This document shows positions 3,501 to 59,922 of a stretch of 64,000 bases of DNA, in pieces; positions within the stretch are counted from its first letter, which is position 1, and each line of letters begins with the position of its first letter. The translations under genes were made by a program, and so were the position numbers. The notes under the pieces were generated by a model that saw nothing but the letters and a program-made list of their open reading frames with translations, was not told the origin of the DNA and did not search any database. Source of the stretch: Rhizaria sp. SCN 62-66 (Eukaryota); the NCBI GenBank assembly GCA_001724265.1, contig MEDY01000026.1, positions 1-64,000 of the forward strand, written 5' to 3'.

Positions 3501-6500
3501 AGCGCGTCCGCCTCCGTCGCCGCGGGCTGCGAGCCGGCCGCCGCGCCGCCCGCGGAGAGCGCGCCCGCGTGCGCGCCGCCGCCCAACGCCGACGCGAAGA
3601 GCGACGGCTGCGGCGACGGGGCCGCGGGTGACGTCGTCAGCGTTCGGCCGCGCACGCGCTCGACGATTTTCTCAGTATCGCTCACAGTCGCAGTCCCGCG
3701 CTGCTTCTTGCGGTTGACGTAGCGCGTGACCGTGCGCGTCCATGCGACCTGCGTGGGCGCGGGCAGCCGCGCCGCGTCGTCCGCCGTGCGCGCCCAGTCG
3801 AACGCGGCCGCCCACATGCCCTGCAGCGCCGCTGCGTCGGCAAGCGCGAGCGCGACCGTGACGGCGCCGCGGTTGTGGTCCCAGGCCAGCAGCAGCGCGT
3901 CGATGAGCGCGCGCGGCGGCGAGTCGAGCCGCAGCTCGCTCATGGCGCCCAGCAGCCCCGCGGCTGCGAGCTGCGGCGGCCACGACGAGCGCGCGCGCAG
4001 CAGCGCCCACGCGCGCGCCGACTGCGCAAACAGTCCATGCGACATAAGTGCGACGGCGTATTCGGAGATAAACGGGAGCGACGCCACGCCGGCGGCCAGG
4101 GCAGCGCCGTCGCCCCCGTGGTCGTGGTCATGCTCGCTGCTGCCGGCTGCGGCCGCCGCGGCGGCAACGGCGGCCGCGGCGGCCGCGGCTGCCTGGGCGG
4201 CGGCGTCGGTCGGCGAGACGCCTGCGAAGGCCCCGCGCCGGCGGCTGTGGGCCGTCAGCGGGGGCTCCGGGAGCTCGTCCAGATCTTCGCTGAAAGTAAG
4301 CCGCGTGACCGTGCGCAGCGAGTGGCGTGCGCGCACGGCGACCACGGTCAGCCACGGCCACTGCACGGTGTTTGCGAGCAAACCAACGCGATTCTCAGTC
4401 TCATCACCACGGTCATTAGCAACACTGCTTGAAGCTGCAGGGTGACACGCGGCAGCGTGGCGGCGGCAAAACGCGACCGCAGCGGCGACCGCGACAGCTG
4501 CAGCCTCCGCCGCGTCTGCGCCCGCAATAGCCAGCGTTCCCGGCGCACCTGCGTACGCCGCGGCGGGCGCGACGGTGACTGGCGAGTCCAACGGCGCGGT
4601 GCGTGTGATGGCGCGGCCGTCAGGCGGTAACAGAGAGAAAGACGGCAGTGGCAGACCGAGCGACACAGTCACTGAGCGCACCGGCAACGCAGTATGCGTA
4701 GTGGTGGCATTGCTGCTCTTGCTCTTGCTGTTCTTGTTGGCGTTTGAGTTCGGGGAGAGCGGCATGGAAGCGGGCACGTGCCAGCTCCACGCCGTGCGCG
4801 CGACCCGCCGGTGCGTCACAGTCGCGGCCTGCGGACACCGCAGCGTGAACAGCGGCGGGACGCCTCCGTCGTGTTCTGCGCGGTGACGCAGCGCAACTGC
4901 AACATCGTCGCTACCACTTTCATTGCCCTCAACCGCACTCGCGCGGTCAGTTGCGCGGCTTGACTTCGCCGCTGTGGAGCCGGCGTCAGCGGTCATGAGC
5001 ACGAGAGGGTCCACAGTGCACATCTCGAGCGCGACGGCACCGTGGCCGACGCCCCAGCCGCGCCGCAGCCGCCGCAGGTGCGCGCGCAGCACGCCGCCGT
5101 TCGCCACGGTCTCGGCAAAAGACGACGAGAGCGCGGACCGCAGCAGCGCGCTCGCTCGCACTAAGGGAGTATTTGCAGCAGCTGCAGTGCCATTGTTTGC
5201 CTTGTGTGCAGTAGTTGAAAGATGCGAATACAGTCGCTCCAGCGCGCGCAGCGACCCGTCTTTGCGGTCGAGATTGCGACTGCTACGAGAGTTATCGTTG
5301 CCATTGTTATGATTCACGGTCACCGTGGCCGTGAGTGGCGTGCGGTGGCCGGGGCTCGCCCCCAGCGCCGCCGCCGCCGAGGCGCCCGCGCCTGCGCCGC
5401 CGCCGCCGCTGCCGCCGGCGACCGTGGCCAGCGACGCGTCTGCGTACGGGTCGTACGCGGCGCTGCGCAGCCACGTGCCCGTGGCGTCCAGGGCAAGGGT
5501 GAACACAGGCGCGAGTAGGGCCTGGGACCGAAAAAAGGGCCGGGACAGCGCGGCGGCGAGCGGCAGCGGCGGGCGCGGGAGTAAGCGCGCGAGCGCGGGC
5601 AGAGAGCGCGCGGACAGGCCAGAGGCTGTGCAGTTTGACACACTGGTTTTGCTAGATTTAGCGGTGCTTGTTGGTGCCAGTGGCGGTGAGCAGGTGGAGG
5701 AGAGGTGCGAAAGCAGAGGCAGCGCAAATTCGTGGGGAATCTCCCAGAATGAGGGGAACTTTGAGGCAAAACGCGTGAAAAACGCCTCTGCACGCGCCTG
5801 CCATTGCGCACCGCGGGGGCTCACAGTCACGCGCTCACTCACAGTGTTGTGCTTTGCCGACTGCTGTTGCTGCTATTGTTGTTGCTCGGCATTCTGCTGC
5901 TTAGCATTGGGTTTCAGGCCAGAAGCACTTAGAGCGTCGCTGTGCGAGTGCAAGTGCAGCGCTGTGAGCGTGGTGCGAGTGACCGTGAGCACGCCACGGG
6001 CCGACACACCCCACTGCTGCTCCCAGCCAAGGCTCGCCACAGCCACAAAACCGGTGGGAACAGTGCTCGCGCCGTCAGACTTAGCGTTCGCGCGTGTGTT
6101 GTTGAGAACGTTTTGGCTTTGGAGCGAGAGTGTGTACGCCTCCCCAGAGTGGGTGTGCCACAGCCTGTTGTCAAGCAGTAGCGTTGTCGTCGCAGCTTCA
6201 GTCTCAGCCTCAGTGCCGCCACCAGCACGCTGCGCGCGCTTGCGCTGGGCAGTGCCGGTGGGCGGCGGCGCGGAGACTGGGGCGGGTGCGGTCAGCGAAT
6301 GGATGCGCATATAGCCTTGGAGGAACACTAAAAGTTCGGGACTCGGGCTAATATAGTAAAAGAAAGACAAATTTGTTGCGTTCAGAGTCGATGCTTAATT
6401 GTAGTTAAGAGAAATATAATATTGTAAATGCGAGGTGTTTAAGACGTACTCGTAAACATCGATGGCGAAGCAGTCCGCTGCTTTGGCTGCCGCGGCAAGC

Positions 6501-8122: not shown

Positions 8123-9478
8123 CGTGCTTAGCATAATGCGCATATGCGCGGCGTTAACTTCCGCCAAGGAGCGGGGTCAGTGTCAGCTCGGTACACGTTT
8201 TAGATACTGATGGGTATGTTGCGGTACTTCGGTGGTTCCAGTGATGACGGCAACAGGCCTGCGTGAATAAGAGTGTGATTAGTGATTGTAGATGTGAGTT
8301 ATAGAGTATATTATTTCAAAAATTATTCCTATTTAACAAATAAATTCCGTTGATACTAAGAGAAATTAAATTGACGATCAAATTCGCATCATACAATGGG
8401 TCAAAGTTCAAGCCTTGTCGTCGGTCATCAGACGCATTTGACTCTCACCAGTCACGTAAAGCATGTTGTTATCTTTTCAAGTTACTTTCATCAAGATATT
8501 ATGAGGGCAACAGATAAAGGAACTCAATTGTATTCTTAATACACACAATATACTAATATTTCGTGACGAAAGCAACATATTCACATTTCTTCTCGCATCC
8601 TTTCATTTCAGTTCTCGCTTGTTACACATGTTACGTTTTGTGTTTAAGATGAAGTTGTGATTGCCACTCAAAGCCAATACCTCTCACGCCTTGGCAATTT
8701 TTTCGCTGCATGAGAGTGATAATGCGTGGTTAAATAAGTGACATCTTTCTGAATGTCGTGTCGTTGTTTTTAAGAGTGCGTTTACAGTCATCACCCCAAG
8801 CATGAGTGTTTACAATGTGAGTGTGTGTCCGGCGTTTCGGGTGAAAACATGAGACGCGCCAAAAGACAGAAACACACGCAGCAGTGACACAGACACAGAG
8901 AGTGACACGTGGGCACGAATGTATCGTTGCCGATAGAGCAACAACGCTGAGCAATAGACGAAGAAAGAGGCAGCCACGCTACCACATCGGCGGTGTGCAC
9001 AATGAGTCGCTCGCTCGCTCAGCGCAAGGAGCATCGCCAGTAGCAACCGTCACAGTGTCAGAGTAAAAGTAAGTTAAGGGAAGGTGATGTTACTCTTACA
9101 TGCAAAGTCAAATAAAGCAACGCGCACGAAAAACGACAACAACAAAAAGGAAGCAGACAGACACAAAATAGACAGACACGACAATGAAAGGGTGTGAGAA
9201 GTACTGTCGACTCACAAGCTGAAAAATTGACAAGTTAATCACGACTCAACAACGCAGATACTTAATGCGTTCAAGAGACAACATAGGCCACATATGACAT
9301 ACACAAAAACAAGGAATACCAGTCAAACCAAAGTAAGCAAATTACAAAGACAAAACAAAAAGTAATGTTCTAGAGTTTCAGGTACACTACACAAAAGTTA
9401 CAAGAAATCTCTCACAAAATATCTCTCTTTAAGTACAGACATGACAGCATTCGAGTCGGCACTGACACTCGAACGCCC

Positions 9479-12400
9479 TTAGTCAGTCATGTCAACACCG
9501 CCACCGCCACCATGTGCACTCACGCTCGCATTCGCACTGGCGCTTGCGCTTCTGTTGTCTGCGCTACTAACGCCATTGGCGGCGTTGGCGCCTTCGATCT
9601 TCACAGCGACGTCGCTCGCATCCAAAGCTGCAAACGTGGCCGCGGCTGTTTCTGCGGTCACGGCGCCGGGCACGGCTGACGTGTCCACGTCCACGACTGC
9701 GCCCGCCGCTGTCGGCGCCGTCGCCGCCACCGCAGTCGCCGCCGCAGTCGGAGCTGCATTGCCACCCACACTCGCGCTGGCGCTCGCACTCAAACTGGCA
9801 CTGGCACTGGCACTTGAGCTAGAGTCACTGTGGGCGTTACCAGCGCCAGCGTTGTCGTCTGTCATAGGACTGATGCCACTGCGCTCGGCCGCCGTCGCCG
9901 TCGTAGCAGCCCCCGCAGCCCCAGCATCCGTCGCAGCGGCAGCAGCAGCTGCAGCGGCCGCAGCGGCTTCCTGCCTCTGCTGACGGCGCTGCCGCTTCTG
10001 CAGCTGCAGCTGCTGCTCGCGCTCCTGCTCCTGGCGCTGCTGCTGCGCCCACAGCGAGTGGTCCGTCTCGACGTGCGGAACGAAGTGGGAGCGCACGTGA
10101 GGCCGCTGCACGAGCGGCGTCGGGTACGCCGGGTTCGGGTCGCTGGGGTCCGTGTCGAGCTTGAAGTACGACACTATTAGCACGGGCAGCCCCGCCGAGG
10201 AGAAGTCGATCGCGCCGCTGCCGCCGTCCCTACCGCCGCCCGCCGCCGCCGCCGCCGCCTCTGCGCCGGAGCCCGCGGCGGCGTCGGCGGTGCGGCGCGG
10301 CGGCACGTAGTCGAGCCCCAGCCCGTTGCGCGCCGCGACCGGGTCCGAGAGGCGCACGTCCTCTTCCAGAGAGGAGAAGACCAGGTTCTGTGTCTCCAGG
10401 AGGTTCATGCGCTCGCCCTGCGCGTTGACCAGCGCCGTGCGCAGAGACATGTGCGACGAACCAAGGAAGCACGCCTAAACGATATAAAAAAAACAACAAA
10501 ATATGATTGTTAGTGAATTAAAAAAAGAGAGTGAATCAAAACGATTAGAAGTAGAGGAAAAGTAAAGAGTATCGATAGTTGACATTGGAGCATTTTAACG
10601 TACCTGAATGAGTTTCATGTTGTTAGCGCCGTTCTCGGGCGGGTACACGCGGCCCCAGCGGTAGGCCGAGCCTGCGATATTGCTGAGCTCTTCGAACGAG
10701 TAGCCAAGCATCTCCGCCAGCTTGTGGTTGGCGTAGAACGGGCATCCGGCGGGCCGCAGCACGACGACGATGCAGCCGTATTCGTGTTCACGCAGCGACT
10801 CGCACTCAGCCACCAGGTGCGTGAGCGCGACCTGGAGCGGGTTCACCTTACCGAACGCCTTGAGCGCCGCCGCGTTGGAACTGGGGTCCGCGCTGGCGGC
10901 GCGCAGAGCCATCACGGCGGCGGGCGAGAGCTGGAGCTGCTGGCGGCGGAACTGCTCCATGAGGCGCAGCGAGTCAAGTCCGCGCGCCCAGGAGCTGGCG
11001 ATCGACGCGGCGGGCCCGATCGACCACACATCGGAGCCCATGCCGAGGTTGACCAACACCGACGACGTGAAGGACGCCGAGTTGAAGGACGGTAGCCGGA
11101 GCCGGACGCCCGAACCGCCGAGGATGACGTTGCCGATGCGCAGCGACGGCGAGAGCAGAGCGCCGTGCGACAACACTGTGCGGCCCGTGGCGTCCATGCC
11201 GAGCCCGACTCGGAGCGCGAAGTTGAAGAGCCGCGACGACGACGTCAACGACGCCGCCACTTCGGCCTCCTCTGCCTCGGCCGCGGCGGCGTCGGTCACG
11301 GCGGCCTCGGCCATGACCACCGCGGCGGCGGCCTCCGCAGTCGCCGCGTCGCCGCCCGCCGCCAGCGCCGCTGCGCGCGCGATGTCTGCGCGCGCAAGCG
11401 ACTCGGCCTTGCGCTCGGCGTGGCGTAGGAGCAGCAACCGCTCAATGCGCATCGCGGCGGCCGAGGCGTAGTACTCTGCGATCGACGCGCCGACGCAGCG
11501 CGCGACCGAGTAGTCGCCGGGGACGGCCGTGGCGGTAGGGCCCGCGGCGTAGGCCGCCTCGATGCTGCGAGGCAGCCGCACGGGCGCGGGGCCGCCCCGT
11601 TTGCCGAAGGACTTACCAGACTTGGACTTGACGCCCTTCTGTCCGTCGGTGCTGTAGCTGCGGCTGCGCGGGGACGATGATGAAGACGAAGACGCACTTG
11701 ATCTAGCGGCTTTGCCGTTGTCGTCGTCGTCGCTGTTGTCGTCGTCACCGTCGTTCATCTCACTGACGCTGGCAGCGGGCGCCGCAGAGTCAGCGCCATC
11801 AGTCGCGCTGGCACTGGCGCTGGCGCTGGCACTAGCGCTGGCACTGCTAGATGAGCTGCTGCTTGAAGAGGACTCGTAATCATGCTCTTGCTTGACACTG
11901 GCACTGGCACGAGCACGAGCGCCGCTGTCATTCTCTGCGTCAAAGTCAACCTCCGCACTGTCAGCGTAAGAGTCGTCTTCGTTGTCATCATCGTCATCTT
12001 TGCCATCGTCGTCGTCATCATCGTTGGCGCAGTGCTCAAGCCCGCAGAGGTCGTCTAGCGGCCGGTTGTCCTTGGTCAAGAGCACACGGAAGCGCGCCGT
12101 GTCGTCGGCCGGCTCCACGAGGTGCTCGATGCCGAGCAGCACCGTTGCGTTGCCGGCCGTCGACACCAGCATCAGCGCAGACGGGGATGCCGCTGCGGTC
12201 GGGGAGCCGACGACCGCTGGCGCAGGCCCCGTCGTGCTCGAAGTTGACGATGGGTTGCTTCCGCTCACGCGCACAGAGCCAGCAGCAACGGCGCTGGCCG
12301 CGGAGGCGCCAGCTGACCCAGGACCTGCGTTCACGCCCACCGTCGAGGTCGAGGTCGAGAGCGCCGCGTTGACAGCGCCCGCGCCGCCCGTTGCAGCGCC

Positions 12401-14448
12401 CGCGGCGGAGGCGGCAACGGCAGCGCTGTTGGACTTGTTGGCGAGCAGGAGTCGCTGCATGTGCGGCGGGACGGTGTTCGCGCCCGCAGCCGCGGCTTTA
12501 TCGCCGTCATCGTCGTCATCGTTGTTGCTGCGGGTTTCGCCGTTGCCGCCGCCGACGGCAAGACTGGCCAGCGAGGGCGGGGGTGTCGTCGGCTTGACCT
12601 TCTCCACGGCCACGGCCGAAAGTGCGCTTGGCTCGAGGTGCTTCGGCTGGAACCGCGCGTGCATCATCACCTTGACACCCAGCGCAGTCTGCGTGCGCAC
12701 GACGCTGAGGTACGTGCGCATGACCTTCTGCACGAACGCGACCTGGGTCTGGGCCGGGTAGCCGCCCTGGAAGGTGGAGGCCGACAGCGCGGCCGCGGCG
12801 GCGTGCGCGTAGTCGTCGTTGTCAGCGCCCTCATTCTGCGCGTTAGCGGCGTTTTCGTCCGCAGCCGCGCCATAAGCATCGTAGTGCTCCCGATGCTGCT
12901 GCTGCTGCTGCTGTTGCTGAAGTAGCATGTTTTGCTGCTGCCGTTGCTGCTGGGGGTCGAGCTGATCGACACTCGCGTCAGCCACAGAGATGGGCGCGGG
13001 TGCAGGAAACGACTGGGACACCGCACTGCTGCTGCTGTTGTTGTTGGCGCTATTGCTATTAGCGTTGCTGCCGCCACCGTAGAACGCGAGCGGCGGCGGG
13101 ATCGTCGTCGCGGACGCGAGCGAGAGGTCGCGGACCAGGCTCTGCGCCTCGAGCCGGCGCGCGTCGGGCATTGTGGGCGTGAACTGGTACCCGCCCAGCT
13201 GCCGCAGCGACTGGCCGCCGCCGCGCACTGCGCTCGTCGGCGCATTCGCGTTGTTAGCGCTGTTGTTGCCGCCGTTGTTGTTGCTGTTGTTGTTGTTGTT
13301 CATGTTGTTAATGTTGACTGCGGCAACGCGGGGCCCCGCCGAGTTTGACGCCGCAGACACAGCGGACACCGCGGGTGGGAACAGATGGCCGGACGAGGCG
13401 GCCGAGAAGGACGGCCTCTGCAGCGGCGAACCAGCCGACTGCGGCCCCGGCGCCTGCCGCGCGCCGAGCTGCGGCGTCATCAGCAGCGGGTCCAGGAAGA
13501 ACACGGGGTCGGTGCCGCCGCGCAGAGGACCGAAAAAAGATACTAACGAGGACTGGTCGTCGATGGCGTCCTCGTAGCCGGCGCGCATGACGCTCGCGCA
13601 CTGGCTCTGGCTCTGGCTCTGGCCCTGCGCGGGCGCGGGCGGGTGGAAGTGGGCGTGACCTTGGGCGGCGCTGGAGTGACCGTGGGCAGCGCCGGAGTGA
13701 CTGTGGGCAGCGGAAAGTCTCGCCCCCTGGTGGCTGGGGCCCTGAGGACTGTAAATCGAGCTCGATGACCGCACGCTTGTGCTGCGGGCCAGCGTCCTCC
13801 CACCGACGCCCGCGCAAGAGGTCAAGCCGTCATCGTAGGGAAGCGCCCCGCTGTTGCTCCTGCTCCTGCCTCCGCCGACCTCACCAGCTCCAGTGCTGCC
13901 ATTGCCGTGGTCAAGCGGCAGCATGTGGCTGAGCGCCGACGCCGCCGCCGGCCCGCGCGCGTTGCGCTGTGCGCACGCCTCGTCGGTGCATAGCTCGAGC
14001 CCCAGCGTGGAGGCAAGCGCAGCCGAGGCCTCGCTGCTTGTCCCGACGCCCATCGCGGCGGCCGCGGCGCTGGCGGCGGCGGCGGCGAGCGCCACCGCCA
14101 TGGGCTGCGCGGCGGCCGACGTCCCGCCCGCGCCGGCCAGTGCGGCCACGGTCCCGGGTGCGGGCGCCGACAGGGTGACCGGGGAGACGGAGGAGGACCG
14201 CAAGCGCGCGACAGAGAGCCCGTCGAGCGAGGTCTGCACGAAAGACGGCAGCGAGGACACGAACGTCTCGCAGTGCTGCAGGCTGCCGTAGCCCGTGCCG
14301 GGCGCGTGGCCCAGCGCGTGGTTATGGTTGTGGCGAGCGGTGATGTTGATCACCGTGCTCTCGTTGCTGTGCCGCGCGGTGTCGTGCGGACTTGAGAACA
14401 GCGTCGATTGCGACTGCGACAGAGACAGCGACAGCGGCGCCGAGATCA

Positions 14449-14482
<34 letters not shown>

Positions 14483-17400
14483 TTGCTGGCTGTGACCGAG
14501 ACCGAGACTGGTGGTGTTGTGGCTATGGCTGCGGCTGTGGAGCAGGTCCGGAGGGGCGTTGATGAAGGGGTCGTTGCTCGTGCCGATGTTTTTGTTGTTC
14601 ACAACCACAGTCGGGTAAGAAGACATCTCCGGGAACTGACCCTGCTGATACTGTAGCTGCTGTAGCTGCTGTTGTTGCTGGAGTTGTTGTTGATGCTGCT
14701 GTTGCTGCTGTTGAATCATGAGCAGCCGCTGCTGTTGCTGCTGCTGTTGTTGCTGCAGCAACACCATCTCGTGCTGCTGGCTCTGTTCATGCTGCCGCTG
14801 TATCAGCAGCAGCTGCTGCTGTTGCGCCTCGGCCACCGCGGCCTCGGGCGGGTACACTGTGGTGCGTTCCCAACCCGGCCCCGCCTTGGACACCGGCAGC
14901 GTGCGCGCCAAACTGCTGCCACCATCAACGCCAAGCTGGTGCTGCTGAGACTGAGGCTGAGGCTAAGGCTGAGCTTGCTGTTGCTGCTGAAGATGCGACT
15001 GCTGCATTTGATAGTTGTGCTGCATGTGCTGCTGTTGCGCGCACGCCATCGAGACGTCCTCAGACAGCGCTAGGTGCGGCGCAGACCGGCGCTCGATCAC
15101 CAGCTCCATGCGCATCGAGTTGCTGACCTCCTTGGGCGTCAGGTACACGGGCGTCGGCGCTGGCAGCGCAACGGGCGGAGTTAGGAACGCGCACGTGATC
15201 TCAACAAGCCCCGAGATGAGGCGTTGCATGCGCATCAGCATCGCCGGCGACGGCGCCGCGCCGGGCGGCAGCAGACTGGAGAAGAGGTCGTTCACGTCAA
15301 CGGCCGTCGGCGGAGCTGACTCGGCCGCCACAACGCCGTCGGGGCCCGCGAGGTCGAGCACGTTGTTGGCGTCCGCATCGTCCGCGGAGGCAGTGGCGGC
15401 GGCTGTGGCGTCCATGGCGATGTCGGAGGCCGTGCGGTGCATTGGACCGGAGGTACGCTCGGCGGCGTCCGCTGCTGACAGAGCGGCGGGAGCGCGGGAG
15501 TCGCCGTCGTCCATCGCGATCAGGGCAGTGCCGGCGCCGTTAGCGGCCGCGGAGAGCCCTGCTGAGGCGATAGCGGCGACGTCGGCGGCGCTGAGGCCGT
15601 TTTCATCGCGCGTGACCGCGTTTGAGGCAGAACCGCCGCCGTTGCGCACAGTCGCGTTAGTGATACTCTGATACCCGTGACTCGCGCTTGCGGTGCCGGC
15701 GCAGGTGAGAGGCACAAGGCGGTTGTCGCTGCTTGCGGTTCCGCGTCCCGCGGTATCTTTGCTGCCCAGGAGCGTGATCATCGCACGCTGCGCCGCGCCG
15801 CCGCCGTTGTTGACCGCAGAGCCCGCAGTCACGGCGCCGCTAGCCCCAGAGCCCGCGCCGGCACTGCGACTGCGGCTGTGGCCGGTTGGCGGGAGGCTGC
15901 CCGTGTCGATGACGATGCCGGGCACGGTCGCCGCCGCGGCCTTGGTGACCGCGGCGACGACCATGAGAGCATACGTGCGTGCGTAGGCCTCGGCCTCGGC
16001 CGCCGAGATGAGCGGCTCCGGCGGCTCTGCGGCGGCCGCGGCGGCGGCGTCCACTGCGGCGACCGCGGCCGCCGTCAGCGCCGCCGGAGAGCTCGGGTCA
16101 GCCGCTCCGGCCGCGGACGGCGACGGGGCCAGCGCGGAGGCCGCGATCGCCGCAGTGAACGCGCTGCTGCTGCTGCTGCTGTTTCTGCTGCTATTGCTGC
16201 CGCCTGAGGAGCCGGCGTCGGCGTCGTCAGGGGAGGCGTTGGCGGCGGCTGCTGCTGCTGCTGCTGCGGCGGCGGCGACAGTGCTCTTCTGGTAGCGCAC
16301 CGTCTCGTACAACACCTTGACCGCCTTGGTGCCGACCGCTGTGCCCACTGCGGTGCCAGCGGCGGCGCCAGCGGCGGCTGCGGCGACAGTGCAGGGGTTC
16401 AGCACCACGGCGCCGCCGCTGGACTGGGGCCGACTGCCGCTGGAGGGCTCCGCCTTGACGCGCGCACCGAAGCCAGCTGACGCTGAGCCTGACGCTGAGC
16501 CAGAGCCAGAGGCGGAGGCGGAGCTAGAGCCGTGTGCGGCGATGGGGGTGATGTCGGCGCTGGCGACCGTGGGCAGCGGGAGCTGCGTCAGCGCGTCACC
16601 GACACTGCTGTCGCCGCCGGAGCTCGGGCCAGAGCCCGTGCCAGAGCCAGAGCCAGTGCCAGCGCCAGAGTGACCATGAGCAAGACGACTGCGCTTTGCT
16701 TCGCGAGTCAGCACATCGGCCTCAGCGGCATCGGCCTCACCGTGACCCTCACGGTCACCGTTGCCGTTGCCGTTGGCACTGTGACCGAGAGACGAAGCGC
16801 TGGGACTCGCGGTGGAGACTGGTGACGTAATGAACGCAGCAACGGCGGCCGCGGCCGCTGACAGGGGGTTCTTGCTGTTGCCGCTGCCACTGCCACCGCC
16901 GCTGCTGTTGCTGTTGCTGGCAGCAGTCTTGCTAGCGGCGCTGACGCCAGTCGCGAGCGAGAGTGCGGCCACGCGCGGCGACGACACAGGTTCAGTTTTA
17001 ACGTGCACGCCACCAGCGCCCGCGCTGTCGTCGTCGCCCAGCGCAGTCGCATCGGCGTTCGTCTCCGCGTCGTCTGAGGCGTTGGCGCCAATGCTGGTGT
17101 TGCTCTGCGCAAGCTTCTCCTGCATTCGCAGTAAAACCTGCCTGATGACGGCAAGCGAGCGCGACTGCTCGGCCTGGTCGGAGCTCCGCAGCAGCGCCAG
17201 CAGCTCGCGCACTTGTGCGGCGGAAGGCATACCGGCGCGGGCGCATTCCTGCTCACATTTCTCGCGGTCACGCTCATCGACATTTTCACTTGCACTCGCG
17301 CTGGCGCTGGCGCTTGTGTTGTCGGCCTCAGTCTTGGAAGCAGTCTCAGTCGCACCCGCGCTCGCGCCACTGGAGCCGCTGCCACAGCTTTCATTGCCGC

Positions 17401-19147
17401 GGTCTGCGGAGATCGCGTTGGCCAGCGCGGCCACGGGCGCCCCGGGGCCCGCGCCGGCCGACGCCAGCGCCAGCGCGACGAGGAGCTCCGACATCGTGGT
17501 CGCGTTAACCAGCGCCTGCACCGCCGCCGTCGTCGCCGACAAGGGCGCGAGCAGCGTCAACGCACCGCCACCGTTTGCACCCACACTGTCGATGGTACTT
17601 GAGTCAGCGCCCGCGGAGTCCTCAGCCTTGACGTTGGCGTTGGAGTTAGCGTCAACAGAACCGGCGCTCTCGCTGGGGCCGAACAGCAGCGACGCCGCAG
17701 CGGCCGCAACCGCGGTCTCGGCGGCGTAGCGCATGGTGCTCTCGCCGCCTTCGCGCTGCATCACGCGCGCCACGATCTCGAGCTGCTCGCGCCGGGTCAG
17801 CTGCTGCAGGTGCCTCATAGCCGCCGCATTTGCCTCGGCGTCGGCGTCGGCGTCGGCGTCCGTATCGGCCTCGTCCGCGGCCGCGTCAGCGCCGTCAGCG
17901 GCGGTGTCGGCGCCGTCGGCGGAGTCCTGCTGGTTCGACTTAAGGCCGGCAATGAACGCGTATAGCCGCGAGTAAACGTCGTCGTTGCCGTCGATTCCGT
18001 CAGTGATGTCGGCGCCGTCGCTCATTTCGACCGCGTGGCCCGCGCTATCGCCGGCGGAAAGCGGCGGCTCGTCGCTTGCGATGTTGTTTAGGGCACTGTC
18101 GCGTTCGCTGCGGCCGGCCTCTGTGTCGGACGCGACCTCCCGCGCGTGCGCCTCGATCGACGCCGACGCCGACAGCAGCGCGGTGACCATCGCAGCGCAC
18201 GACATGTTGACGGCGTCGGCCGACGCGACGTCGCTCGTAGCGACGGCGCCACCGACAGACACGCCCGGGCTGTTTCTATCGCTGATACTGCTGCTGCTGC
18301 TGCTGGAGTTTCCGCTGTTTGCCGGCGAGCTAGCCGAGTACGACGCGGAGGTGCCGCCACCGTCGCGGTCACTAATGCGGTCGCGCTCGCTGCTGCGGGC
18401 ACTGGACTGCCGAGAGTTCGCGCGCGAGAGATCGGACGCGGACGCCGAATCGCTGGCGGTTCTGCTGCCAGAGGACGGAGTCCCAGCCACACTGCGCCCA
18501 CCAACTGAGCCGGCACCGTTGGAGCCAGACGTTGACTCGGAGGCCGAGACAGAGGTTGAGCTCAGGCGCGAACAACTGCCGCTGCCATTGCTGCAACTGG
18601 CGCTGACGCTGACGGCGCGCGAGTTAAGCGCCGTCGCCGTCGCAGCGGTCGCAGTGTTGGCGGCGAACGTGGTGGCGCCTGAGTTCGGCCCCGACCCCGG
18701 CCGCGAGACCGTCCCAGTGCTCGCAAGAGCGCCGACGCCAGTGCTCGTGCCGAGAGCGGGGCCCGTGACGGCGCTGCTGCTCCTGATGGCGCCGAGCGTG
18801 ATGGCGGGGCCGGAACGCGTGACCCCCGTGGCGGTGCGCGCGACGGCTGACGCCGCGGCGTGCACCGACGCCGACACCGCGGGCCCCAGCGCGGACATGA
18901 ACGCCGTGACGTAGGCGCCGGGCGCGCCGCCCTCGGTCATGCCGGCGTTCAGACCGGCGGTCACGGCGTTGTTGACGCCGCTACTCGCGGAGCCCGAGCG
19001 GGAACCCGGGCCGGAGCCGGTGCCGGAACCCGCGAGGGAACCCGTGACGGAACCGGTGAGTGCGAGAGAGCCGGCGCTATTGGGGGTGGTGACAGAGCTC
19101 GACCGCGCGCTATTGAGCCCACTGTTGGGGCCACTGCTGCTGTGGCG

Positions 19148-19195
<48 letters not shown>

Positions 19196-22100
19196 GACGA
19201 GTTGGAGATACACGAGTTGGTGGGATTGGTACTGAGCTGTGCGCACGGCGGGGGTCGGCGGCTTCATAAAGCCTCCAGAGCCGATTGCCCCAGCGCCAGA
19301 GCACGAGCCAGATGACCCCGGTGAGGAGGCGGCCCCAGCCCCCTGCGCCGCGTCGCCGACGATGATGCTCGCGGCCGTGGCGGCCGACATCGCCGCCACG
19401 GCCTCGCTGGCGGGCGCGAGCTTGCGCTGCTGCTGCTGGGACAGCTGGAACGCGCGGGATAACAAGTCAGCGCGAGCAGATCTGCTGCCGCCGCCGCCTT
19501 GCTGCTGCTGCTGCTGCTGTTGCTGCTGCTGGTGCGCGTGCGCCGCCGCGGCGGCTGCGGCGGCAGCGGCGGCGGCGGCGGCGGTGACGGCGATTGTGCT
19601 CGTGCCGAGACCCTCGCTCTTGACGCTGGAAACAACGCTAGCGCCGCCGCTGTTGCCTGCACTTGAGTAGCCACTGCCGCTGCCGTTGCTACTCGTGCTG
19701 TGGAGCAGGGTCGTCGTGGAGCTGGTCGACCCGGGGGCCGAGCGCGGGGGCGGCGACTGTGACCTCCCGCCGAGTGACTGCGAGCTCGCGCTGAGTGACT
19801 GTGAGCTCGACAGGGACAGGCGCGACTGGTGACCGTGGGCAGCTGCCGAGTGACCGTGAGCAGCGGAGTAAAGCGGCTGTTTCGCGTTGCCCGTGTACGG
19901 AGAGAGGCCGACCACACTCGGCGACTTCCCCTGCTGCTGCTGCTGTTGCTGCTGCTGGAGAGAGCCCGCGAGCGGCGAAGAAGGTGATGGCGATTGCGCG
20001 CGCCCCATCAGACACCCGCCGCGCTGCAATGCATTCACACCACCGCCACCGCCGCAGCTGCTGAGGCCGGGGCCAGCGCCGGCGCCGGCGGCAGAGGTTG
20101 GGTGGTGGCCGGCGGAGACTGCGGCGGCGACGATACTGGCCGAGGTTGAGGCCGCGGTTAGCGTGCGGAGCACCTGGGTCAGCGGTTCGCGAAAAATCGA
20201 TAAAGAGAAACAACAGCAGAAAAGATGAGAGAATATTGAATTGATGCGATTATAAGAGCGATACAGGTAAGAGTTGAGCGTCAAAGCAAGATACAGTTTA
20301 GAATAGGCATCCATATGAAAAACTGTGCGCTTTGTTGCGTTATAGCGATGCAAAAGTGCGTACCTGTGCTTGGAAAGGAGTCTGTGCCCCCAGCCCCGCG
20401 ACACCGGAACTGGGTCCGAGTCCGAGGCTGCTGTTATTGCTGATGTTGCTGATACTGTTGATGCTGTGCGCGTTGGCTGCGTGCAGCAGCGGCGTCGACA
20501 GCGCCTGCGACTGAGACTGAGGGAGCGACGACGGGTGCTGGTAGTAGGCCGACGCCGACAGCGACGACGGCAGCTGCGCCTGCACCTGCGCCTGCAGAGT
20601 GGTGGCGCCACCGATCGCGCTGACGGCCGCGTTGCCGCTGCTGCTCCCTGCGGACGCGGGGGCAAACGAGGGCGATAGCGCGCTCGCACCAGAACCAGCA
20701 GCAGCAGCGGCGGCGACGGCGGCGGCGGCGGCGGCGTTAGAGCCGACCGTGGTGTTGCTGTACTGGCCGACCGCGTTGCCGTACTGGCCCGATACGATGT
20801 TGGCGATGGTGTTGTACTGCGAGTACTGCTGCAGCCGCGGTAGCGAGGCCGGGGTGGCCGGCAGCGAGGACCGCGAGTTGGGCGCCGACGCCTCCTGCGG
20901 TACCCCTTGCGGACCCCCATGCGTTCCGCTATGTGTTCCCCCATGTGTTCCGGCGTGCTGGTTCTGGGTGTAGTGGTTCTGCAGGGCGAGCGCCATCGTC
21001 GTGTTGTGAAGCGTTTTGTGGCGGTGCATCGCAGACATGAGCGAGGACACGTGCTCGTCGACGCTGGCGGTCACGGACGACGATGATGACATTTCGCTAA
21101 TTCCAGAGCCGGCGCTGGGGCCGAGAGCGCCGGCCGCAACGGAGCCGTTCCCACTCGCCCCGGCCAGACCGGCCATTGGGGTGACGCCAGGTGCTGCCGC
21201 GGCTGAGGGGGAGTTGCCCCGCGGCAGCAGCTGACTGTGGGCAGCAGAGTGACCGTGAGCATGATTGTGAGCATGACTGTGGGCGAGGGCGTGACTATGC
21301 GCAGCGGCCGCGATGGCTGTGGCGCGGTGGCGGCCGCCGGCGGCTGTACCGAGAGCGTAGTTGTTGCCGGCCGCGGCGTTGGCGGTGGCGATCACGGCCG
21401 CTGCTACACTGTTCACGCCCGGGAAGTTTGAACCAGAGCCAGAGCCAGAGCCGGCGACTGTATTAGCCGCGCCGGCACCGGGGCCTGAGATGAGGACAAC
21501 ACTGGGGGCAGGCGCGGCGGCGCCAGGGCCGCCAGCGGACTTGAGCGATGCGTGGCCGTTACCGTTGATATTGCCATTGAGACCCGGGCCTGAGCCTGGG
21601 CCCGAGGAGACCGGGGTGCGCACAGCGACGCCGCGCACGGCCGTGGTCATCACCGTGTTGTTGACGGTGGCCCCGGCGGCCGAAGCACGGGCGGCGGCGG
21701 CGGAGGGCGCGCGCGCGGCGACTGCGGCGGCCGCGGCGGCCGTGGCGTTGACCGTATTGTGGTAAAGTAGGAGAGCAGCGTTGGCGTTGGCCTGCGACAG
21801 CGACTGCTGCGAGCCCGGAAGGTGGCCGCCGTAGCCTGCCGCGCCGGAGTGCGCGAGTTGGTGCGCTGGGACACGCCACAGGAAGCGAGCGGCGAGTGGG
21901 CGAGAGAGCCGGAGAGGGAGAGAAATAGAGACAAGCACGTGAGGAGGGGGGCGTAAGGCGTGGCAGAGCTCGGTGATATATGATCAAGTCGGTTCAAGCC
22001 TTGCGAGAAAACATAAGAAGAGCACGGAAAAATATAAAACAAGAACTACGCTAGGCACAGATGTGGCCGCTAAACGGTGAGTGTACGAACCTGCGGCGAG

Positions 22101-22391
22101 CCCGTTAGAGTTGGGCGAAGAGGCGTCGTACGCGTAGGCCTGGCCAGTGTAGGAAAGTTGCGGGAGCGCTCCGTGAGCTCCACCTTCTGCTTCCAGCGCC
22201 TTTTGCTGCAGCAACGCCTGGTGGCGAGCTTCCGACGCCGGGCCGCGCTTGCGGCCGCGTGGACGCGGGTTATAGTCGATGCATTCGTCCTGTTTACCGG
22301 CTTGAATGCAACGCAAACACGGACGATTGGTGTCGCATTTAAGCTTAGCGTTGCGGCAGTTCGTGCACGCCTTGGACACGGGACGGTCCAT
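9479..22391 (-). CDS. Zn(II)2Cys6 binuclear-cluster transcription factor with C-terminal PAS domain (~4,122 aa; 4 exons; one in-frame TAG)
   Basis: Exons 22391-22091, 21865-20364, 20173-10604 and 10474-9479 sum to 12,369 nt, in frame. N-terminus ACTNCRNAKLKCDTNRPCLRCIQAGKQDEC is a Gal4-type six-Cys cluster. C-terminus GCIVVVLRPAGCPFYANHKLAEMLGYSFEEL..WGRVYPPE..SLRTALVNAQGERMNLLETQNLVF..LPVLIVSYF is PAS-like. Exon 3 crosses TAG 14965-14963. Ends TAA. Confidence 0.85.
19147..19194 (-). repeat. CAG/CAA polyglutamine tract (one of many in the transcription-factor gene)
   Basis: Sixteen consecutive Gln codons in the translation LQLVQQQQQQQQQQQQQQQQRH. Confidence 0.85.
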
Positions 22392-32407: not shown

Positions 32408-35400
32408 TTATGTGATAGAAATAACGCCCTTGTCGGCCATAATCCTCCTTCCATGCCCCAGTGCAACTCCCCTATTATCAGAGTGCCTGTTGCTGTTGTT
32501 GCTGGTAGTAGTGTTCTTGTCGGTGCGGCCCGTCGCAGTCTCCCAGACGCCCGCCACAACCATCCACACGCACATCGCCGCGTTGGCCAGCGCCACCGCT
32601 GCCACGGCCACGGCCACCCTGCTCCGGCCGCGCGTGACGCCTCCAGAGGAGTGGCCGTGAGCAGCATGCGTTCCACCAGCATGCGTACCGTGCGCGGAGT
32701 GCTCGACCGCGAACACAGCCAGTGCGGTCCACGCCACCAGCGTCATCACGGCTGGCAGCAGCCAGCACGCCGTGAAGCGCGCCCCGCGGCCCACAGCGGC
32801 GACTGCGCGCTTGACCCGCGTCTTGCCCTCACTATGGCCGTGACCGCGGGGGACTGTGGGCAGCTTGGGGAAGAGCGCGCACACGGCTGCAACGTCGACG
32901 GCCGCGGCAACGGTCAACAGAGCGACCGTGAGCAGGACGGACATCGCACCGACGACACGGCCACCGGCAGTCGACTTAGACTCGGGCTGCTGTTGCTGTT
33001 GCTGCTGCTGTTGCTGCTGTTGAGACTGTGTCGGTGCAGGCATGATGATGTGCTTCAGTGCACGCACTGCCCGCGCAACCGCGGCTTGACTTTGCGTGCG
33101 CAACCGCGACTGCGATTGTGTCAGCGCATCCGTCTGCGTTGGCGTTTGCGAGAGCGATTGTGAGAACAATTGCGGCGTGACGGCGGCGGCGAGGCTGTGC
33201 AGCGTCTGCGCAAGATCCGAGTCCGCGGCCACGGCAGCGGCGACCCCGCGCACAGTTTCGATCGCGTGGCTCAGCAGCGCGGACAGGTCACGCGCAGCCA
33301 GCCCCGCGCCGCCGCCACTGGCAGCAACGGCGGCGCCGGTCTCAGCGGCGTCGGATTCGGCGGCGGTGTGATTGCGACTAGCCGAGCGAGCGAGCGCGTC
33401 AGTGTCAACATCGACAACATCGTCGTCGGCGTGATCACCGTGAGTGTGAGCGAGGAGCTCTCCAGCCTTGCTCAGCGCCTCCGTCGCACCCGTCTCGTAC
33501 CCGCTGGCGTACGCGGCGGCCACCGCGGCCGCCGCCTCCGCCTCCGCCGCAGTCGCGTTGCCCGCGCCGTGCTCCCTCGCTTCTTCCGCGGCGCGCTGCA
33601 CCGCAGCAGCCACGGCGGACGCGAGCGCGGTCTCAGCGGCCGCGGTCGCCTCAGCCTGCGTAGCCGCGGCCTCGGCCTTGGCGGCGGCCACCGCAGCAGA
33701 CACTGCAGCGGCGGACGCGGCTTCAGCGGCCTTAAGCTCGGCGTCGCAGCTGTGAGCAGCTGGCTCGAGCTCGGCGATTGCACACTCGGGACAAGTGACC
33801 GTGGGTACCTCAGGGCAGGCGACTGCGGGCACCTCAGGGCAGGCAACAGGCTCAGCGCAAGCGACGGGCTCAGGGCAAGAGAGAGGCCCGGCGCAGGCCA
33901 CAGGTTCAGGACATGTGATTGGCTCAGGACAGGTGACGGGCTCGGGGCATACGACAGCGTGCGGACAAGCGACGGGAGGACACGTGACTGGAGGGCATGC
34001 GACCGGAGGAGGACACGTGGCTGCAGGTGGACAGCGGCATTCAGCGCTCGCGCTCGATTCCACACTCTCACTCGCACGAGAGTCAGCGTTGAACGACTGC
34101 GTAAGCCCGAGACTAAATGGGCTGCGCACGGGACACGTACCCTCACGCGCACCATACCGCGCCACTGACTGCGCTACAGCCTGCGATAAGTCAGACTTCG
34201 CGCATGACTGAGGACATGACGGCGACTGCGGCTGAGAGACCGTCTTGCTCAAGTCGCTGACCTTAGCCTCACACGCCTCCGCCGCCGCCTCCGCCGCGGC
34301 CTCTGCAGCGGCCGCGCTGGCAGCATACGCATCGGCCGCCGCCGCGGCGTCTGCCCGAGCGGCGTCGAGCGCGCTCTGCACGGCCTCGAGCCCCGCTTTG
34401 ACCGATGCAAGCTCGGCCTCCGCGGTCGCGCACCCGTCCCGAGCAGCGTCAGACCCAGACTGGGCGTTCTCGCACTCGGTCTTCGCGGTCAGCGTGTCGG
34501 CCTTCGCGGCGTCGGCGTCCGCCACGGCCGCTGCGGCCTCAGCCTTCGCGGCCTCGGCCTCGAGCTTCGCCGCGTCACGCGCCGTCCTGGCGGCCTCAGC
34601 CTCGAGTTTGGCGACGGCGGCCTCGGCTGCGGCCGTGTCTGCGAGCCGTGCGATTTCGTCGACTGCGGCAGCGGCGGTGCTTGCGGCCGCCGTGGCCGTC
34701 GCCGCAGTCTCGGTGAGCTCGGCGAGAGAGCGCGCGCTCACTGTCACCCAGTCCCCGCGCATCAAAGCCTGAGACGGTGAGTGCGGTCGCGACTGCGAGC
34801 GTGAGTCGGACCCTGCAACAACGCAGGTGCACGGTGCGGGCTCAGGGCAAGGAACGGACTGCGTCGGCTCAGCGCACGGTGCACACTCCGCACACTGTAC
34901 GGGCTCGGCGCACTGTACGGGCTCGGCGCACTGTGTCGGCGCAGGGCATGGCACTGGCTCAGGACACTCAGCGCAGCTAACGGGCTCAGCGCACGGTGCG
35001 CACTCGGCGCAAAGAGCTGCAGATGCGGGGCAGGCGACACTGGGCTGCCACAGGGACTGCGGGCGCCCAGTGTCCAGGTCTGCAGTCAAAGCAGCGGCGG
35101 CGGCGGCCGTGACGGCAGTGAACAGCGACGCTTGCTCCGCACCTGTCACAGTCGCTGAGTCAGACTCGACGCAGTGAGGGCAGACAGAGCAGTCGCAGCG
35201 ACACACGCTGTCATCCACCTTCGCAGCCGCGGCCGCGAGACGGAGATCGCAGTCAGCGGTGATATCGCCAACCTTGCGCTGACAGTCGTTGGCGGCGTCG
35301 GCGGCCTCGCGCGCGCACTTAGCGGCGCTGGCCTCGGCCTTGAGCCCCCAGGCGCGCTCGCAGTCGCCGACCTTCTGCGTGTACTCGCGCTCCCGGTCAC

Positions 35401-37585
35401 TCGCAGCGCTCTCAGCAGCGCGCGCACACTCATCGCGCGCAGCCTCAGCGGCTGCTGCGGCGGCGTCGGCAGCGGCGGCAGAGTGAGCGCACGGCGCGAA
35501 CGCGGAGTCGAAGTACTTTTCGCCCGACTGTGAGCCCCAGAGTGAGGCGGACAGCGCCGTCACTGCGGTCACTACGGGCCCCGGCAGAGCGCGCGCCAGG
35601 AGCTGCGGCTTAACTTCCGTCACCGCGGCACCGGAAGAGCTCGAGGTCGCGCGAGAGCCCGTGGCCGCAGCAGGCCCGCAGGTGTAGACACTGGGCGCGG
35701 CAGAGAGACTGACCAGCACTGCGCCACCAAGCAGCAGTGGCAGCAACAGCAGCGGCAGCAGTAGCGATGAGCGAGGCGACGATTGCGCAGTAGTGACACC
35801 CTTAGGGGCCACCACGGGGACCTGCGACTGGGCAGCAAGCAGAGCGGCAGCGGCGGCCTCAGCCTTTGCCCTGAGAGCAACAGCCTCAGCCTTGGCGGCG
35901 TCAGCTTCACTCTTCGCTGCGGCGGCCTCAGCCTTGGCAGCAGTGGCCTCAGCCTTGGCAGCAGCAGCCTCGGCCTTTGCGGCCGCAGTCTCAGCTGCAG
36001 TCGCAGTCCGCGCCTCGGCGTCCGCATGCAAAGCCTCCGCCTTAGCCGCCGCCGCCTCCGCCTTCGCAGTCGCCGCCTCAGCCATTGCGGCAGCGGCTTC
36101 AGCCTTTGCAGCGGCTGCCTCGGCCTCGGCCCTCGTCGCGCGCTCCACAGCAACCTCAACATGCATTTCCGCCGCCGCCACATTCGCATTCGCGGCTGCC
36201 TGAGCCCCCACTAGCGCCGCGGCCTCCTGCTGGCCGGCCACCGCGCGCGCCCCCGCGGCCGCGGCCTCGGTCTGCGCCTGCACGAGGTCTGCCCTCAGCG
36301 CACCCACGGTCGTTTCCAGCGCGCCCACGGTCACTTCGAGCGTGCGCACAGTCGCCTGCAGCGCGGGCGCGGCGGCGGCGTCGGCGCGCGCGGTTGCCAG
36401 AGACGTCTCCAGCCTACCGCGCTCTGCGCGGTGCTCGCGGTCGAGCTCGGCCCGGTCGCGCGAGAGCTGCTGCTGCAGCGCAGCGACCGTGGCCGTGGTG
36501 GCCGCGAGCTCGCGCTCGAGCTGGCGCGCTCGCAGGGCCGCGGTCGCGGCGGCGGCGGCGGCCGTCGCGGCGGCGGTGCGCGCGGAGGCAATTTCGCGGT
36601 CCAGAGAACGCTCGGCGGTCACCGCGGCACGGGCGCGCGCACTGGCCAGCAAGCTACTGTTCGCAGCTGTCATCGTAGTCGTCGTCGACGGCGTGGCGTG
36701 GAGTGTGCTCTGCTGCTGCTGTTGCTGTTGCTGCTGCGTGGTGTCGGGGAGAGAGCCTGAGCGTGAGTCTTGCGGCGTTGCGGGCGCTGACTGCAGCTGG
36801 GCCATGGCAGCCAGCAGCCGGCCCGCGTTGGCGTTGACGCTGGCGCGAAGGTTCTCACTGAGATTGCCCTGCACCTGCGACTGCTGTTGCTGCTGAGCGA
36901 GACTGCTCCTGCTACTATACACGCCTTCGACACCGTGACTAGCCGCATTCTCGCCCGCAGCCGCATCTGCTGTGTGATTGTCGCTCGCGCTGCCAGCTCC
37001 AGACGGAACGCCGTCTGGCGCGAGGAGCGAGGTGACTGTGGGCAGACCATCGACGGAAGACGCGTCAGACCGCAGCGACTGCGACATAGCCAACTTTTGC
37101 TGTTGCGATGCAAATAGAGACTGTGAACACGACTCTGACTCAGGCCCGAGCCCCGAGGCAGACGCAGACGCAGAGGCCGACATTGCAAGTGCTGCGCGCT
37201 CCTCAGCCTCGGCCAGCGCAAGCTGCAGACCCTGCACCTGCGCCTGCGCGGCCAGCGCTGTGGCCTCTTTCTCAGCCACTGCCGCGGCCGCCGCGGCCTC
37301 GGCAGCCTTGCTGGCCGCCTCCGCCGCACCCGCCCGCGCCTCGGCGCGCGCCGCGGCGGCCTGCGCGGCGTCGCACCGCTGCTCACGGTCACTGAGCTCC
37401 AGCGCGGCGCGGTCGCGGTCTGCGCGCGCGTCGAGGGCATCGCACATTGCGCGCTCGGTCGCCGCGGCGGTGAGGGAGAGAGTGCCCTCAAGTTCCCGGA
37501 CACGGCGAGACAGGGCGCTGTGCTCCGCAGCCAAGTCGACAGGCGCGGTGGGCGCGGACTCAGCGCTAGCGGCATTCTGGTCCTC

Positions 37586-37629
<44 letters not shown>

Positions 37630-43048: not shown

Positions 43049-43822
43049 CGCGCCGAGTTTGGATAATAAGGGCGCTTCCTGGGAGTAACAACAGATGGGT
43101 GTGTTGGGGCGAAATGAATTTTTGAATGGTGAGTATGGTGAGGGGTGAGCAAGAAGGAAAGAGAACGCTCAGGTTTGCACTCGAGAGCGGGGATACCGGA
43201 AGGTCCAGAAGCCTGAGATCAACGAGAGTAAGTTTGAAAAATAAGTTGATAGTAGAACAGATAGATTGATTTACATAATCCAAATTTCAGAGCTGTTATC
43301 GGACATTGCAGTGTGTATCACTCTTTGCAAGTTCAGTATTCCCTTCCCGCCTCCCACCTCGCTTGGCCTTGTCCACGCGCCATCGTCCTGCCGAAGTCAT
43401 CATGAGCGTAACCTATTATAACTCAACACTGTGCCTCACACAACAATCGATCAAAATGTCAACTTAAACATATAATTATCACGCCGATTTTGAGCAGCTT
43501 CATTAGTTTTCACGTCATTTCATGATACTTGTTCCGTGCGATGTGAAACAAAATGTCGTTGGTCTCGGCAAGAAGAGATGTTTGTATTGATTCTGCAGCG
43601 TATCTCTCTCAAAAACAAAGCAAGATGTGGTATAGATAGTTATTATATAATAATGTGTCTTAGGTAATAGTATTCTTCACGAAACAAAAGCAAACGACGA
43701 CGCAAGAACACTACGCCCATTGCTCCGTTATTTTTGTCTCATCAATCTCTCAGTTCTTCTGAGCTCACAGCCATCAGTCACACAACAAACCGCAGCTGCT
43801 ACTCGGACAACGAGCGGTTCGT

Positions 43823-45518: not shown

Positions 45519-46165
45519 GCGCGCGGGGATGCTGGTTCTGCAGAGGGGATGAAGCAAAAAAAATAAGTGCCGAAAGAGGCGTGTGAGTGTGACTGGAAAG
45601 ACGGTGAGAGAATGTGCGAGTTTGCGAGCGGGCGCCTCAAAAAAATAAGGGTGAAAACAAAAAGGCAAGTAGCTCGGGGTTCGTAAGCACGCAGTTGCAG
45701 CGTGATCGCGGTTTGAGGCGCGGCGCTGGTAGAAAGTGAATGTGCATAGGCGGTGTGCTGACGTAAGCACAGCGACCGCAAACATGCCAATCAGAGCGAG
45801 TTACGGCGCAAGAGCGCGTATAACAATTGTCAAGCAATGTAAGCGCGCACATGTTCCGGTCGAAAAAGATTAATACTTGACAGCGAACGATCGATATCGG
45901 CCCTAATCACGATCGAGAAGTGGTCGTCTTCGCGATCAAATCTGTCCCGACAACTAAAAATTGTTTTTCATTTTTTGCGAACCTACTAGAGTTCGGAGCT
46001 TCCACCACCAACTTGTTTCGCTCATTTTGAGAACGCATATCTCGATACAATGACCGTCAAGCGAGATCCTGCGATCTTTTCTCGAAAGTGTCACCACTTG
46101 ACAATACTCACAATTCTTAACGCTTGAACAGCCGCGCGTTACACCTACATCCGCCCGAAACTCCG

Positions 46166-54158: not shown

Positions 54159-54189
<31 letters not shown>

Positions 54190-59677: not shown

Positions 59678-59922
59678 CACAGCCTATTCGGTTGAAATAA
59701 CAATTTGTAAATAATAGGTTGTTAGCAATGCTTAAATATATGAGCAGTCAAGTTGCAGTCCTGAACAACGATCGTGTGTCGAGGTAGTCTTGGTTCAAGA
59801 TGTTGAATTCGTGGATTTTTGTTTGTGGCCGAGGAGCCACCCCGCCCCGGCGCGAAGTCTATCACTCGTCACTATGAGATGTATACATTGTTTGAGTTAG
59901 TATAATTTCGCGCACAGGCAAA

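Follow-up and report, generated by a model that had tools for sequence, protein, structure and literature searches.

Results

The DNA under study was a window of 64,000 nt (contig MEDY01000026.1 of assembly GCA_001724265.1, Rhizaria sp. SCN 62-66, positions 1 to 64,000 of the forward strand), and all positions below refer to it. On its minus strand lies a very long gene predicted to encode a fungal-type Zn2Cys6 transcription factor, whose open reading frame (ORF) contains one internal stop codon, a TAG standing at a glutamine (Q) position. This TAG, together with three others of the same kind in the window, is the subject of the present report. The coordinates of the features are collected in Table 1.

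The spliced model of the Zn2Cys6 gene has four exons and runs for 12,369 nt from ATG to TAA, with 4,122 codons. All three introns have GT..AG ends. Introns 2 and 3, both AT-rich, carry signals like those of yeast, and the 3' site proposed for intron 1 closes the frame in the spliced model. Intron 3 contains a TAA at 10597 and a TAG at 10477, which are in frame but intronic and not coding, and its length is divisible by three, which leaves the unspliced frame in register. That the gene encodes a transcription factor had been proposed in a first-pass annotation of this DNA, and the assignment was supported by a Zn2Cys6 cluster in exon 1, which matched the Pfam family Zn_clus (PF00172), defined by the six-cysteine pattern CX2CX6C...CX2CX6-8C, over residues 7-45 with an E value of 9.3e-9 and 35.7 bits against a cut-off of 21. 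The protein is mostly low-complexity Ala/Ser/Gly/Gln sequence, with 247 Q in 4,122 residues (6% Q).

Within this gene one frame is split by the TAG at 14965-14963 alone, giving a stop-to-stop frame of 2,035 codons (14963..21070) and another of 1,455 codons (10595..14962). The minus strand from 14976 to 14941 reads CAA GCT CAG CCT TAG CCT CAG CCT CAG TCT CAG CAG, and the TAG-CCT unit differs from the flanking CAG-CCT units only in a C to T change. The in-frame TAG at a glutamine position of a repeat, which had been noticed at first pass, was confirmed by this direct reading. It is the only internal stop of the spliced model and is followed by 1,784 codons, all intact, in good agreement with the earlier estimate of about 1,780. 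Off-frame stops occurred at 874 of 33,252 codons in the coding DNA of the window (density 0.0263). At this density a run of 1,784 open codons has a chance P of ~2e-21, so chance was ruled out as the origin of the open frame. An intron concealing the TAG was considered and rejected, because neither a GT..AG pair nor an AT-rich dip was found around 14965. The GC content of the window varies from 49 to 71% in 2-kb steps; coding DNA has about 65-70% GC, and the introns and intergenic DNA are AT-rich.

Homologues of the part around and beyond the TAG were sought by several routes. Pfam gave 0 families for both halves of the long frame, and a HMMER search with the 1,199 residues after the TAG against 1.84 billion representatives gave 0 matches. 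A homologue search with residues 1650-2450 of the read-through frame found none, the candidates being swamped by low-complexity words.

A spliced PAS domain had also been placed in the distal part of the protein at first pass. The splicing was borne out, since intron 3 (10603..10475), which divides the region, has canonical signals, whereas the domain itself stayed below the Pfam cut-off (PAS, E 0.07, 13.5 bits against 22.6) and gave no match in the Protein Data Bank (PDB). The model PAS_12 had an E value of 0.026. The PDB sequence search with this region returned only spurious summed matches to designed repeat proteins, and an AlphaFold (AF2) model, made by reading through the intron, had a predicted local confidence (pLDDT) of 41 and was useless. 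In a language-model atlas nearly all neighbours of the region belonged to the PAS clan (0.90-0.94), with only 76-103 of 256 features shared. Taken together these results weakly suggest a putative PAS domain at the C-terminus. A subgroup of Zn2Cys6 (Gal4-type) factors carries a C-terminal PAS domain, including yeast Rds2, Ert1 and Gsm1 and Aspergillus AcuK and AcuM. The present protein resembles them in its N-terminal Zn2Cys6 cluster and in the sub-threshold PAS-like region at its far C-terminus, and differs from them in its 4,122 residues of mostly low-complexity composition and in having no sequence homologue found.

Three more in-frame TAGs were found in three other genes of the window, so the question raised by the TAG is organism-wide and not gene-specific: it is how the organism decodes TAG, not how the Zn2Cys6 gene is regulated. 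The second TAG separates two abutting frames, 37616..43168 and 32408..37615. The third lies in a WSC-domain gene, downstream of an intron of 102 nt (6449..6348) that keeps the frame. The fourth lies in a gene on the plus strand (47872-51306) that runs from the ATG at 47872 to the TAA at 51304, and no splice signals were seen near this TAG.

For the fourth gene, a search with TAG read as Q retrieved two proteins, P0121 and P0122. P0121 is the window's own ORF of 886 aa, which starts at the first ATG after the TAG, is recorded on 4 contigs and lacks 258 N-terminal residues present in the orthologue P0122. P0122 (1,127 residues, 65% identity, 100% coverage) is a continuous protein across the TAG site. 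In the pairwise alignment the TAG stands opposite Q (RRFS-X-LMFRHCF in the window, TAYS-Q-LMFRHCF in P0122). UAG was thus matched by a homologous Gln at 1 of 1 alignable site; the other three sit in Q repeats and offer context only.

The frequencies of in-frame stops were determined in a set of 16,640 confident codons from 9 genes, consisting of the whole Zn2Cys6 gene and the long exons of eight others. Sequences with unfixed exon borders were left out, namely the last exon of the WSC-domain gene, two exons of a gene resembling protein disulfide isomerase (PDI-like), the later exons of the gene ending at 26449, the gene at 46121 and the WD40 gene at the window end. This set contained 4 TAG in four genes, 0 TAA and 0 TGA. 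The four TAGs are followed by 887 to 1,784 open codons, each run having P <1e-10 by chance. All four are at Q positions and three are within Q-rich repeats. Gln codons flank the TAG on both sides in two of the four (37618 and 5875); the TAG of the Zn2Cys6 gene stands in P-TAG-P with Q at -2 and +2, and that at 48640 in S-TAG-L. Under a model of random nonsense mutation, the probability that all four derive from CAG was 0.0007 to 0.04 (transition weights 1 to 8). At least two Q within two codons were found at 3 of 4 TAGs and at 280 of 777 ordinary Q codons (binomial P = 0.14), so the distribution of TAG is close to that of Q codons in general.

A codon-usage log-odds scan for further in-frame stops failed to tell coding frames from non-coding ones at 30-40 codons and was dropped. 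A list of stops flanked on each side by 100 or more open codons consisted mostly of off-frame and antisense frames of this GC-rich DNA. A candidate fifth case, QQQQ*QQ at 42738-42742 on the minus strand, was rejected as an off-frame reading of the Ser run AGC AGT AGC in the 3,547-codon gene; this false case indicates that repeat DNA is able to mimic an in-frame TAG among Q.

Ten gene ends in the window could be read, and their stops were 6 TAA, 4 TGA (one uncertain) and 0 TAG. The TAA ends are those of the Zn2Cys6 gene, the 3,547-codon gene (TAA TGA in tandem), the 1,144-codon gene, a Ski2-like helicase gene, the PDI-like gene and an RPA1-like gene. The TGA ends are at 26152, 26449, 591 and, with uncertainty, 47074, which could be a 5' splice site. 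The stop of the Ski2-like gene coincides with the ends of its homologues, and the TAA of the PDI-like gene directly follows RDEL, so UAA is a working stop and, as judged from these C-termini, still terminates.

The reading of both UAA and UAG as Gln (UAR-to-Gln, NCBI table 6) had been suggested by an open frame at 9323..21070. In this code, which occurs in Amoeboaphelidium, ciliates and Hexamita, UGA is the sole stop. It was rejected, because the extra TAA and TAG codons of that frame fall either within an AT-rich intron with GT..AG ends or within the 3' untranslated region (UTR), because TAA is the stop of 6 genes, at a conserved C-terminus in two of them, and because no in-frame TAA occurs in the 16,640 codons.

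No tRNA genes were found in the 64-kb window, no eRF1 gene was present among the window ORFs scanned, and there were no Rfam matches in the window. RNA folding after the TAGs gave z = -0.02 for the Zn2Cys6 gene (93 of 200 shuffles fold as well) and +1.79, +1.00 and -0.83 for the others. A gene-specific readthrough signal was not indicated, since no unusual RNA structure was found past any TAG.

Table 1. Positions of the Zn2Cys6 gene features, the four in-frame TAGs and two terminal TAA codons in the window
Feature	Position	Strand	Basis or details
In-frame TAG, codon 2338 of 4,122 of the Zn2Cys6 gene	14963..14965	-	Read directly and in the spliced model
CAR-NCT hexamer repeat around the TAG (Q-A, Q-P, TAG-P, Q-P, Q-S, then QQ)	14941..14976	-	Read directly
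Exon 1	22091..22391	-	ATG at 22391-22389; Zn2Cys6 cluster at residues 7-45 (about 22257-22373)
Intron 1, 225 nt	21866..22090	-	gttcgt...pyrimidine tract...cccag; 3' site inferred from frame and pyrimidine tract
Exon 2, 1,502 nt	20364..21865	-	
Intron 2, 190 nt, AT-rich	20174..20363	-	gtacgc...ccgctgacccag
Exon 3, 3,190 codons, carries the TAG	10604..20173	-	
Intron 3, 129 nt, AT-rich	10475..10603	-	gtacgt...cactaac...tttag
Exon 4, 331 codons and stop TAA at 9481-9479	9479..10474	-	AT-rich 3' UTR after it
PAS-like region, split by intron 3	10130..10780	-	Pfam below threshold; language-model neighbours
Second in-frame TAG, gene of ~3,547 codons	37616..37618	-	(CAG)n run: CAG CAG CAG CAG TAG CAG CAG CAG CAG
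Third in-frame TAG, second exon of the WSC-domain gene	5873..5875	-	Poly-Q: CAA CAA CAA TAG CAG CAA CAG CAG
Fourth in-frame TAG, codon 257 of the 1,144-codon gene	48640..48642	+	TCG TAG CTG
Terminal TAA, conserved C-terminus of the Ski2-like helicase	51644..51646	-	...SASLYIT-TAA where P0001 and P0004 end ...ASLYLV
Terminal TAA, PDI-like gene	43823..43825	-	Directly after the ER-retrieval-type C-terminal RDEL

Several neighbouring genes were also characterized. The product of the gene of ~3,547 codons at 32408-43168 (minus strand) is a long coiled-coil protein rich in Ala and Glu, which contains Cys-Pro repeats (CPEPVxCPEP...) and has hydrophobic segments at the C-terminal end; it had no Pfam match above threshold. 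The Ski2-like helicase gene (51644-59683, minus strand) has DEAD, Helicase_C and DSHCT domains. Its product, at 2,679 residues, is roughly double the usual length, with an N-terminal extension of about 1,090 residues ahead of the helicase core. Its nearest relatives are long too (P0001, 2,253 aa; P0004, 2,015 aa), and the core is 64% identical to one protein and shares 45-54% identity with Ski2 proteins of fungi, oomycetes and other eukaryotes. The PDI-like gene (43823-45800, minus strand), which served as a control for TAA as a stop, has three exons and encodes two WCGHC thioredoxin motifs and the C-terminal RDEL. An RPA1-like single-strand DNA-binding gene with a TAA end (61151-62593, minus strand) and a WD40 gene (62865-64000, plus strand), which has at least one intron and runs off the window end, were named from reading their translations. 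The introns at 10475-10603 and 6348-6449 on the minus strand, of 129 and 102 nt respectively, are both multiples of three, so a naive ORF reading crosses from exon to exon; through introns of such length a misleading frame of 3,915 codons arises under a TGA-only code.

Discussion

We propose that UAG is probably translated as glutamine in this organism, and that UAA and UGA stay terminators. This is the simplest account of the presence of such TAGs in four genes, always at Q positions, of the use of TAA as a stop and of the lack of TAG at the gene ends read. The TAG of the Zn2Cys6 gene would then be a rare synonym of CAG, born of a C-to-T change in the repeat. The ribosome would put Gln at this codon and make the full Zn2Cys6 protein of 4,122 residues, including the PAS-like C-terminus. 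The decoder could be a tRNA-Gln with the anticodon CUA, or tRNA-Gln(CUG) reading U by first-position wobble, and its partner would be an eRF1 that is poor at recognising UAG.

A number of observations weigh against this proposal. The DNA analysed is one 64-kb window of one assembly, and the decoding machinery was unseen in it, as neither a tRNA gene nor eRF1 was found. TAG accounts for 4 of 781 Q codons (about 0.5%), against 602 CAG and 175 CAA, while the analogous first-position pair TTG/CTG stands at 116/537, so that a fully neutral TAG at equilibrium would be expected to be far commoner. With only about 0.5% of the Q codons, UAG is not an ordinary synonym; either the change would be recent, or UAG would be decoded less well than CAG and selected against. 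A C follows all four TAGs (next codons CCT, CAG, CAG and CTG), and this is the leakiest context for termination. A C-initial next codon also follows 50% of the ordinary Q codons, and four TAG-C in four has P = 0.06; the nine firm terminal stops precede A, G or T (TAA-G, -T, -A, -G, -A and -A; TGA-T, -T and -T). Nonsense mutation of CAG by C-to-T change would yield all four TAGs, so the identity of the codon as Q cannot separate sense from nonsense. TAG typically makes up 20-30% of stops. At this share the finding of TAG at 0 of 10 gene ends has P of 0.03-0.1, and ten gene ends are too few.

The first alternative to be weighed is that the code is standard and that nonsense alleles persist because a near-cognate tRNA-Gln misreads UAG-C in Q-rich mRNA at a few percent, often enough for an adequate supply of full-length protein. 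A yeast preprint of 2026 (PMC13192750) describes premature stops in Q-rich sequence, with QXQ flanks and C at +4, that are read through at 2-8% with Gln, and in Snf5 this level of readthrough suffices for normal, wild-type growth. The TAGs described here resemble that system in that the stop has C at +4 and belongs to a repeat rich in Q; in yeast it is tRNA-Gln that inserts the Gln. Two of the four sites are exactly Q-TAG-Q, all four have C at +4, and the rarity of TAG among Q codons suits a tolerated defect better than a free synonym. The yeast mutations, however, were engineered or screened under a standard code, whereas four natural genes are affected here, two of them without QXQ. Around the fourth site (TCG TAG CTG) there is no Q, and the composition of the protein that contains it is ordinary, while the site in the Zn2Cys6 gene reads P-TAG-P and the number of Q in that protein is just 247. 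Nonsense alleles in four of about twelve genes per 64 kb would also be a very high load. Furthermore, there is no in-frame TAA derived from CAA and no TGA, although UGA was the most permissive stop in the yeast work, and TAG, unlike in the yeast system, is absent from the ten gene ends read here. On balance, misreading of this kind under a standard code appears unlikely, though it deserves serious consideration.

It is also conceivable that the TAGs are real stops, arising from recent inactivating mutations (pseudogenes, or a mutagenised or heterozygous strain), or that they are C-to-T errors of sequencing or assembly; the Zn2Cys6 protein would then end at residue 2337 and lose its distal half. 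Every TAG is indeed a single transition from CAG, the database ORF P0121 begins just past the fourth TAG, so a standard gene caller truncates the gene, and the searches found no homologue of the distal half of the Zn2Cys6 protein to show constraint. On the other side, 887-1,784 codons are intact downstream of the TAGs with their splice signals preserved, all four changes are CAG to TAG with none to TAA or TGA, and the orthologue P0122 is continuous across the fourth site. The ORF after this TAG is recorded on 4 contigs, and the TAG would be reproducible if those are independent assemblies. An assembly of low quality is unlikely, because frames of 2,000-2,700 codons run free of frameshifts, and no frameshifts were seen in about 50 kb of coding DNA. 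We therefore regard real stops or errors as improbable.

Programmed readthrough specific to the Zn2Cys6 gene, in which the TAG would act as a switch between a short Zn2Cys6 isoform and a long one with the PAS-like sensor end, would suit the leaky TAG-C context and the position of the TAG between the DNA-binding end and the putative sensor end, but it is very hard to credit, since no CAR-YYA follows the TAG (the next codons are CCT CAG), no stable structure lies downstream, and three unrelated genes share the feature, pointing to a property of the organism.

The translation of UAG as glutamine, which we favour, has precedents among known nuclear codes. The form in which UAG is Gln and UAA is a stop corresponds to NCBI table 15. 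It has been described in the fornicate Iotanema spirale, the ciliate Protocruzia tuzeti and two phyllopharyngean ciliate lineages (PMC11687900, PMC5304391), and the former source counts only a handful of lineages whose nuclear codes give UAG and UAA different meanings. As in those codes, in-frame UAG is found here at glutamine positions, and UAA is retained as a terminator, as UGA appears to be. Unlike theirs, the host is a GC-rich (about 64%) eukaryote that is neither a ciliate nor a metamonad, with fungal-type Zn2Cys6 and WSC domains and GTACGT / CTAAC introns, which give its genes an apparently fungal flavour. UAG is also very rare here, at about 0.5% of Q codons.

Nearer to the Fungi, the aphelid Amoeboaphelidium protococcarum reads UAR as Gln, and this is the only stop-codon change reported there (PMC6299283, PMC5304391, PMC11687900); Amoeboaphelidium genomes have 40% GC (PMC10608142, Table 1). 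The two cases are alike in that a stop codon is, or probably is, read as Gln and in that the lineage has fungal affinities. They differ in that TAA works as a stop here and in the GC content of the window (49-71% against 40%). Amoeboaphelidium was rejected as the source of this DNA on both counts, and its UAR code was ruled out for the window by the use of TAA as a stop. In the open-access literature searched, nothing was reported on a change of UAG alone in a GC-rich, fungus-like organism.

The low usage of UAG may be the mark of an early or leaky stage of the change. A possible, though doubtful, extension of the glutamine reading is that the organism is in an early stop-to-sense change, in which UAG has gone from gene ends, is re-seeded at Gln codons by C-to-T changes and is decoded by wobble of the ordinary tRNA-Gln(CUG) without a dedicated suppressor tRNA. 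If true, the organism would be a living example of an ambiguous-intermediate or codon-capture stage, and its lineage, GC-rich and with fungal-type genes, is one for which the open-access papers searched record no nuclear stop-codon change of this kind.

Conclusions

In conclusion, the in-frame TAGs of this window probably represent a further UAG-to-Gln variant of the nuclear code, with unusually low usage of UAG. In the Zn2Cys6 gene, Gln at the TAG would hold the DNA-binding end together with the putative sensor end in a single protein of 4,122 residues. Gene callers using the standard code cut short or split genes that bear such TAGs, as with P0121, which holds 886 of 1,144 residues, so the longest genes of this genome are probably mis-annotated. 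Since changes of the nuclear genetic code are rare, a further case, in a GC-rich eukaryote whose genes are of fungal type and in which UAG is still scarce, would provide a natural system for the study of stop-codon capture.

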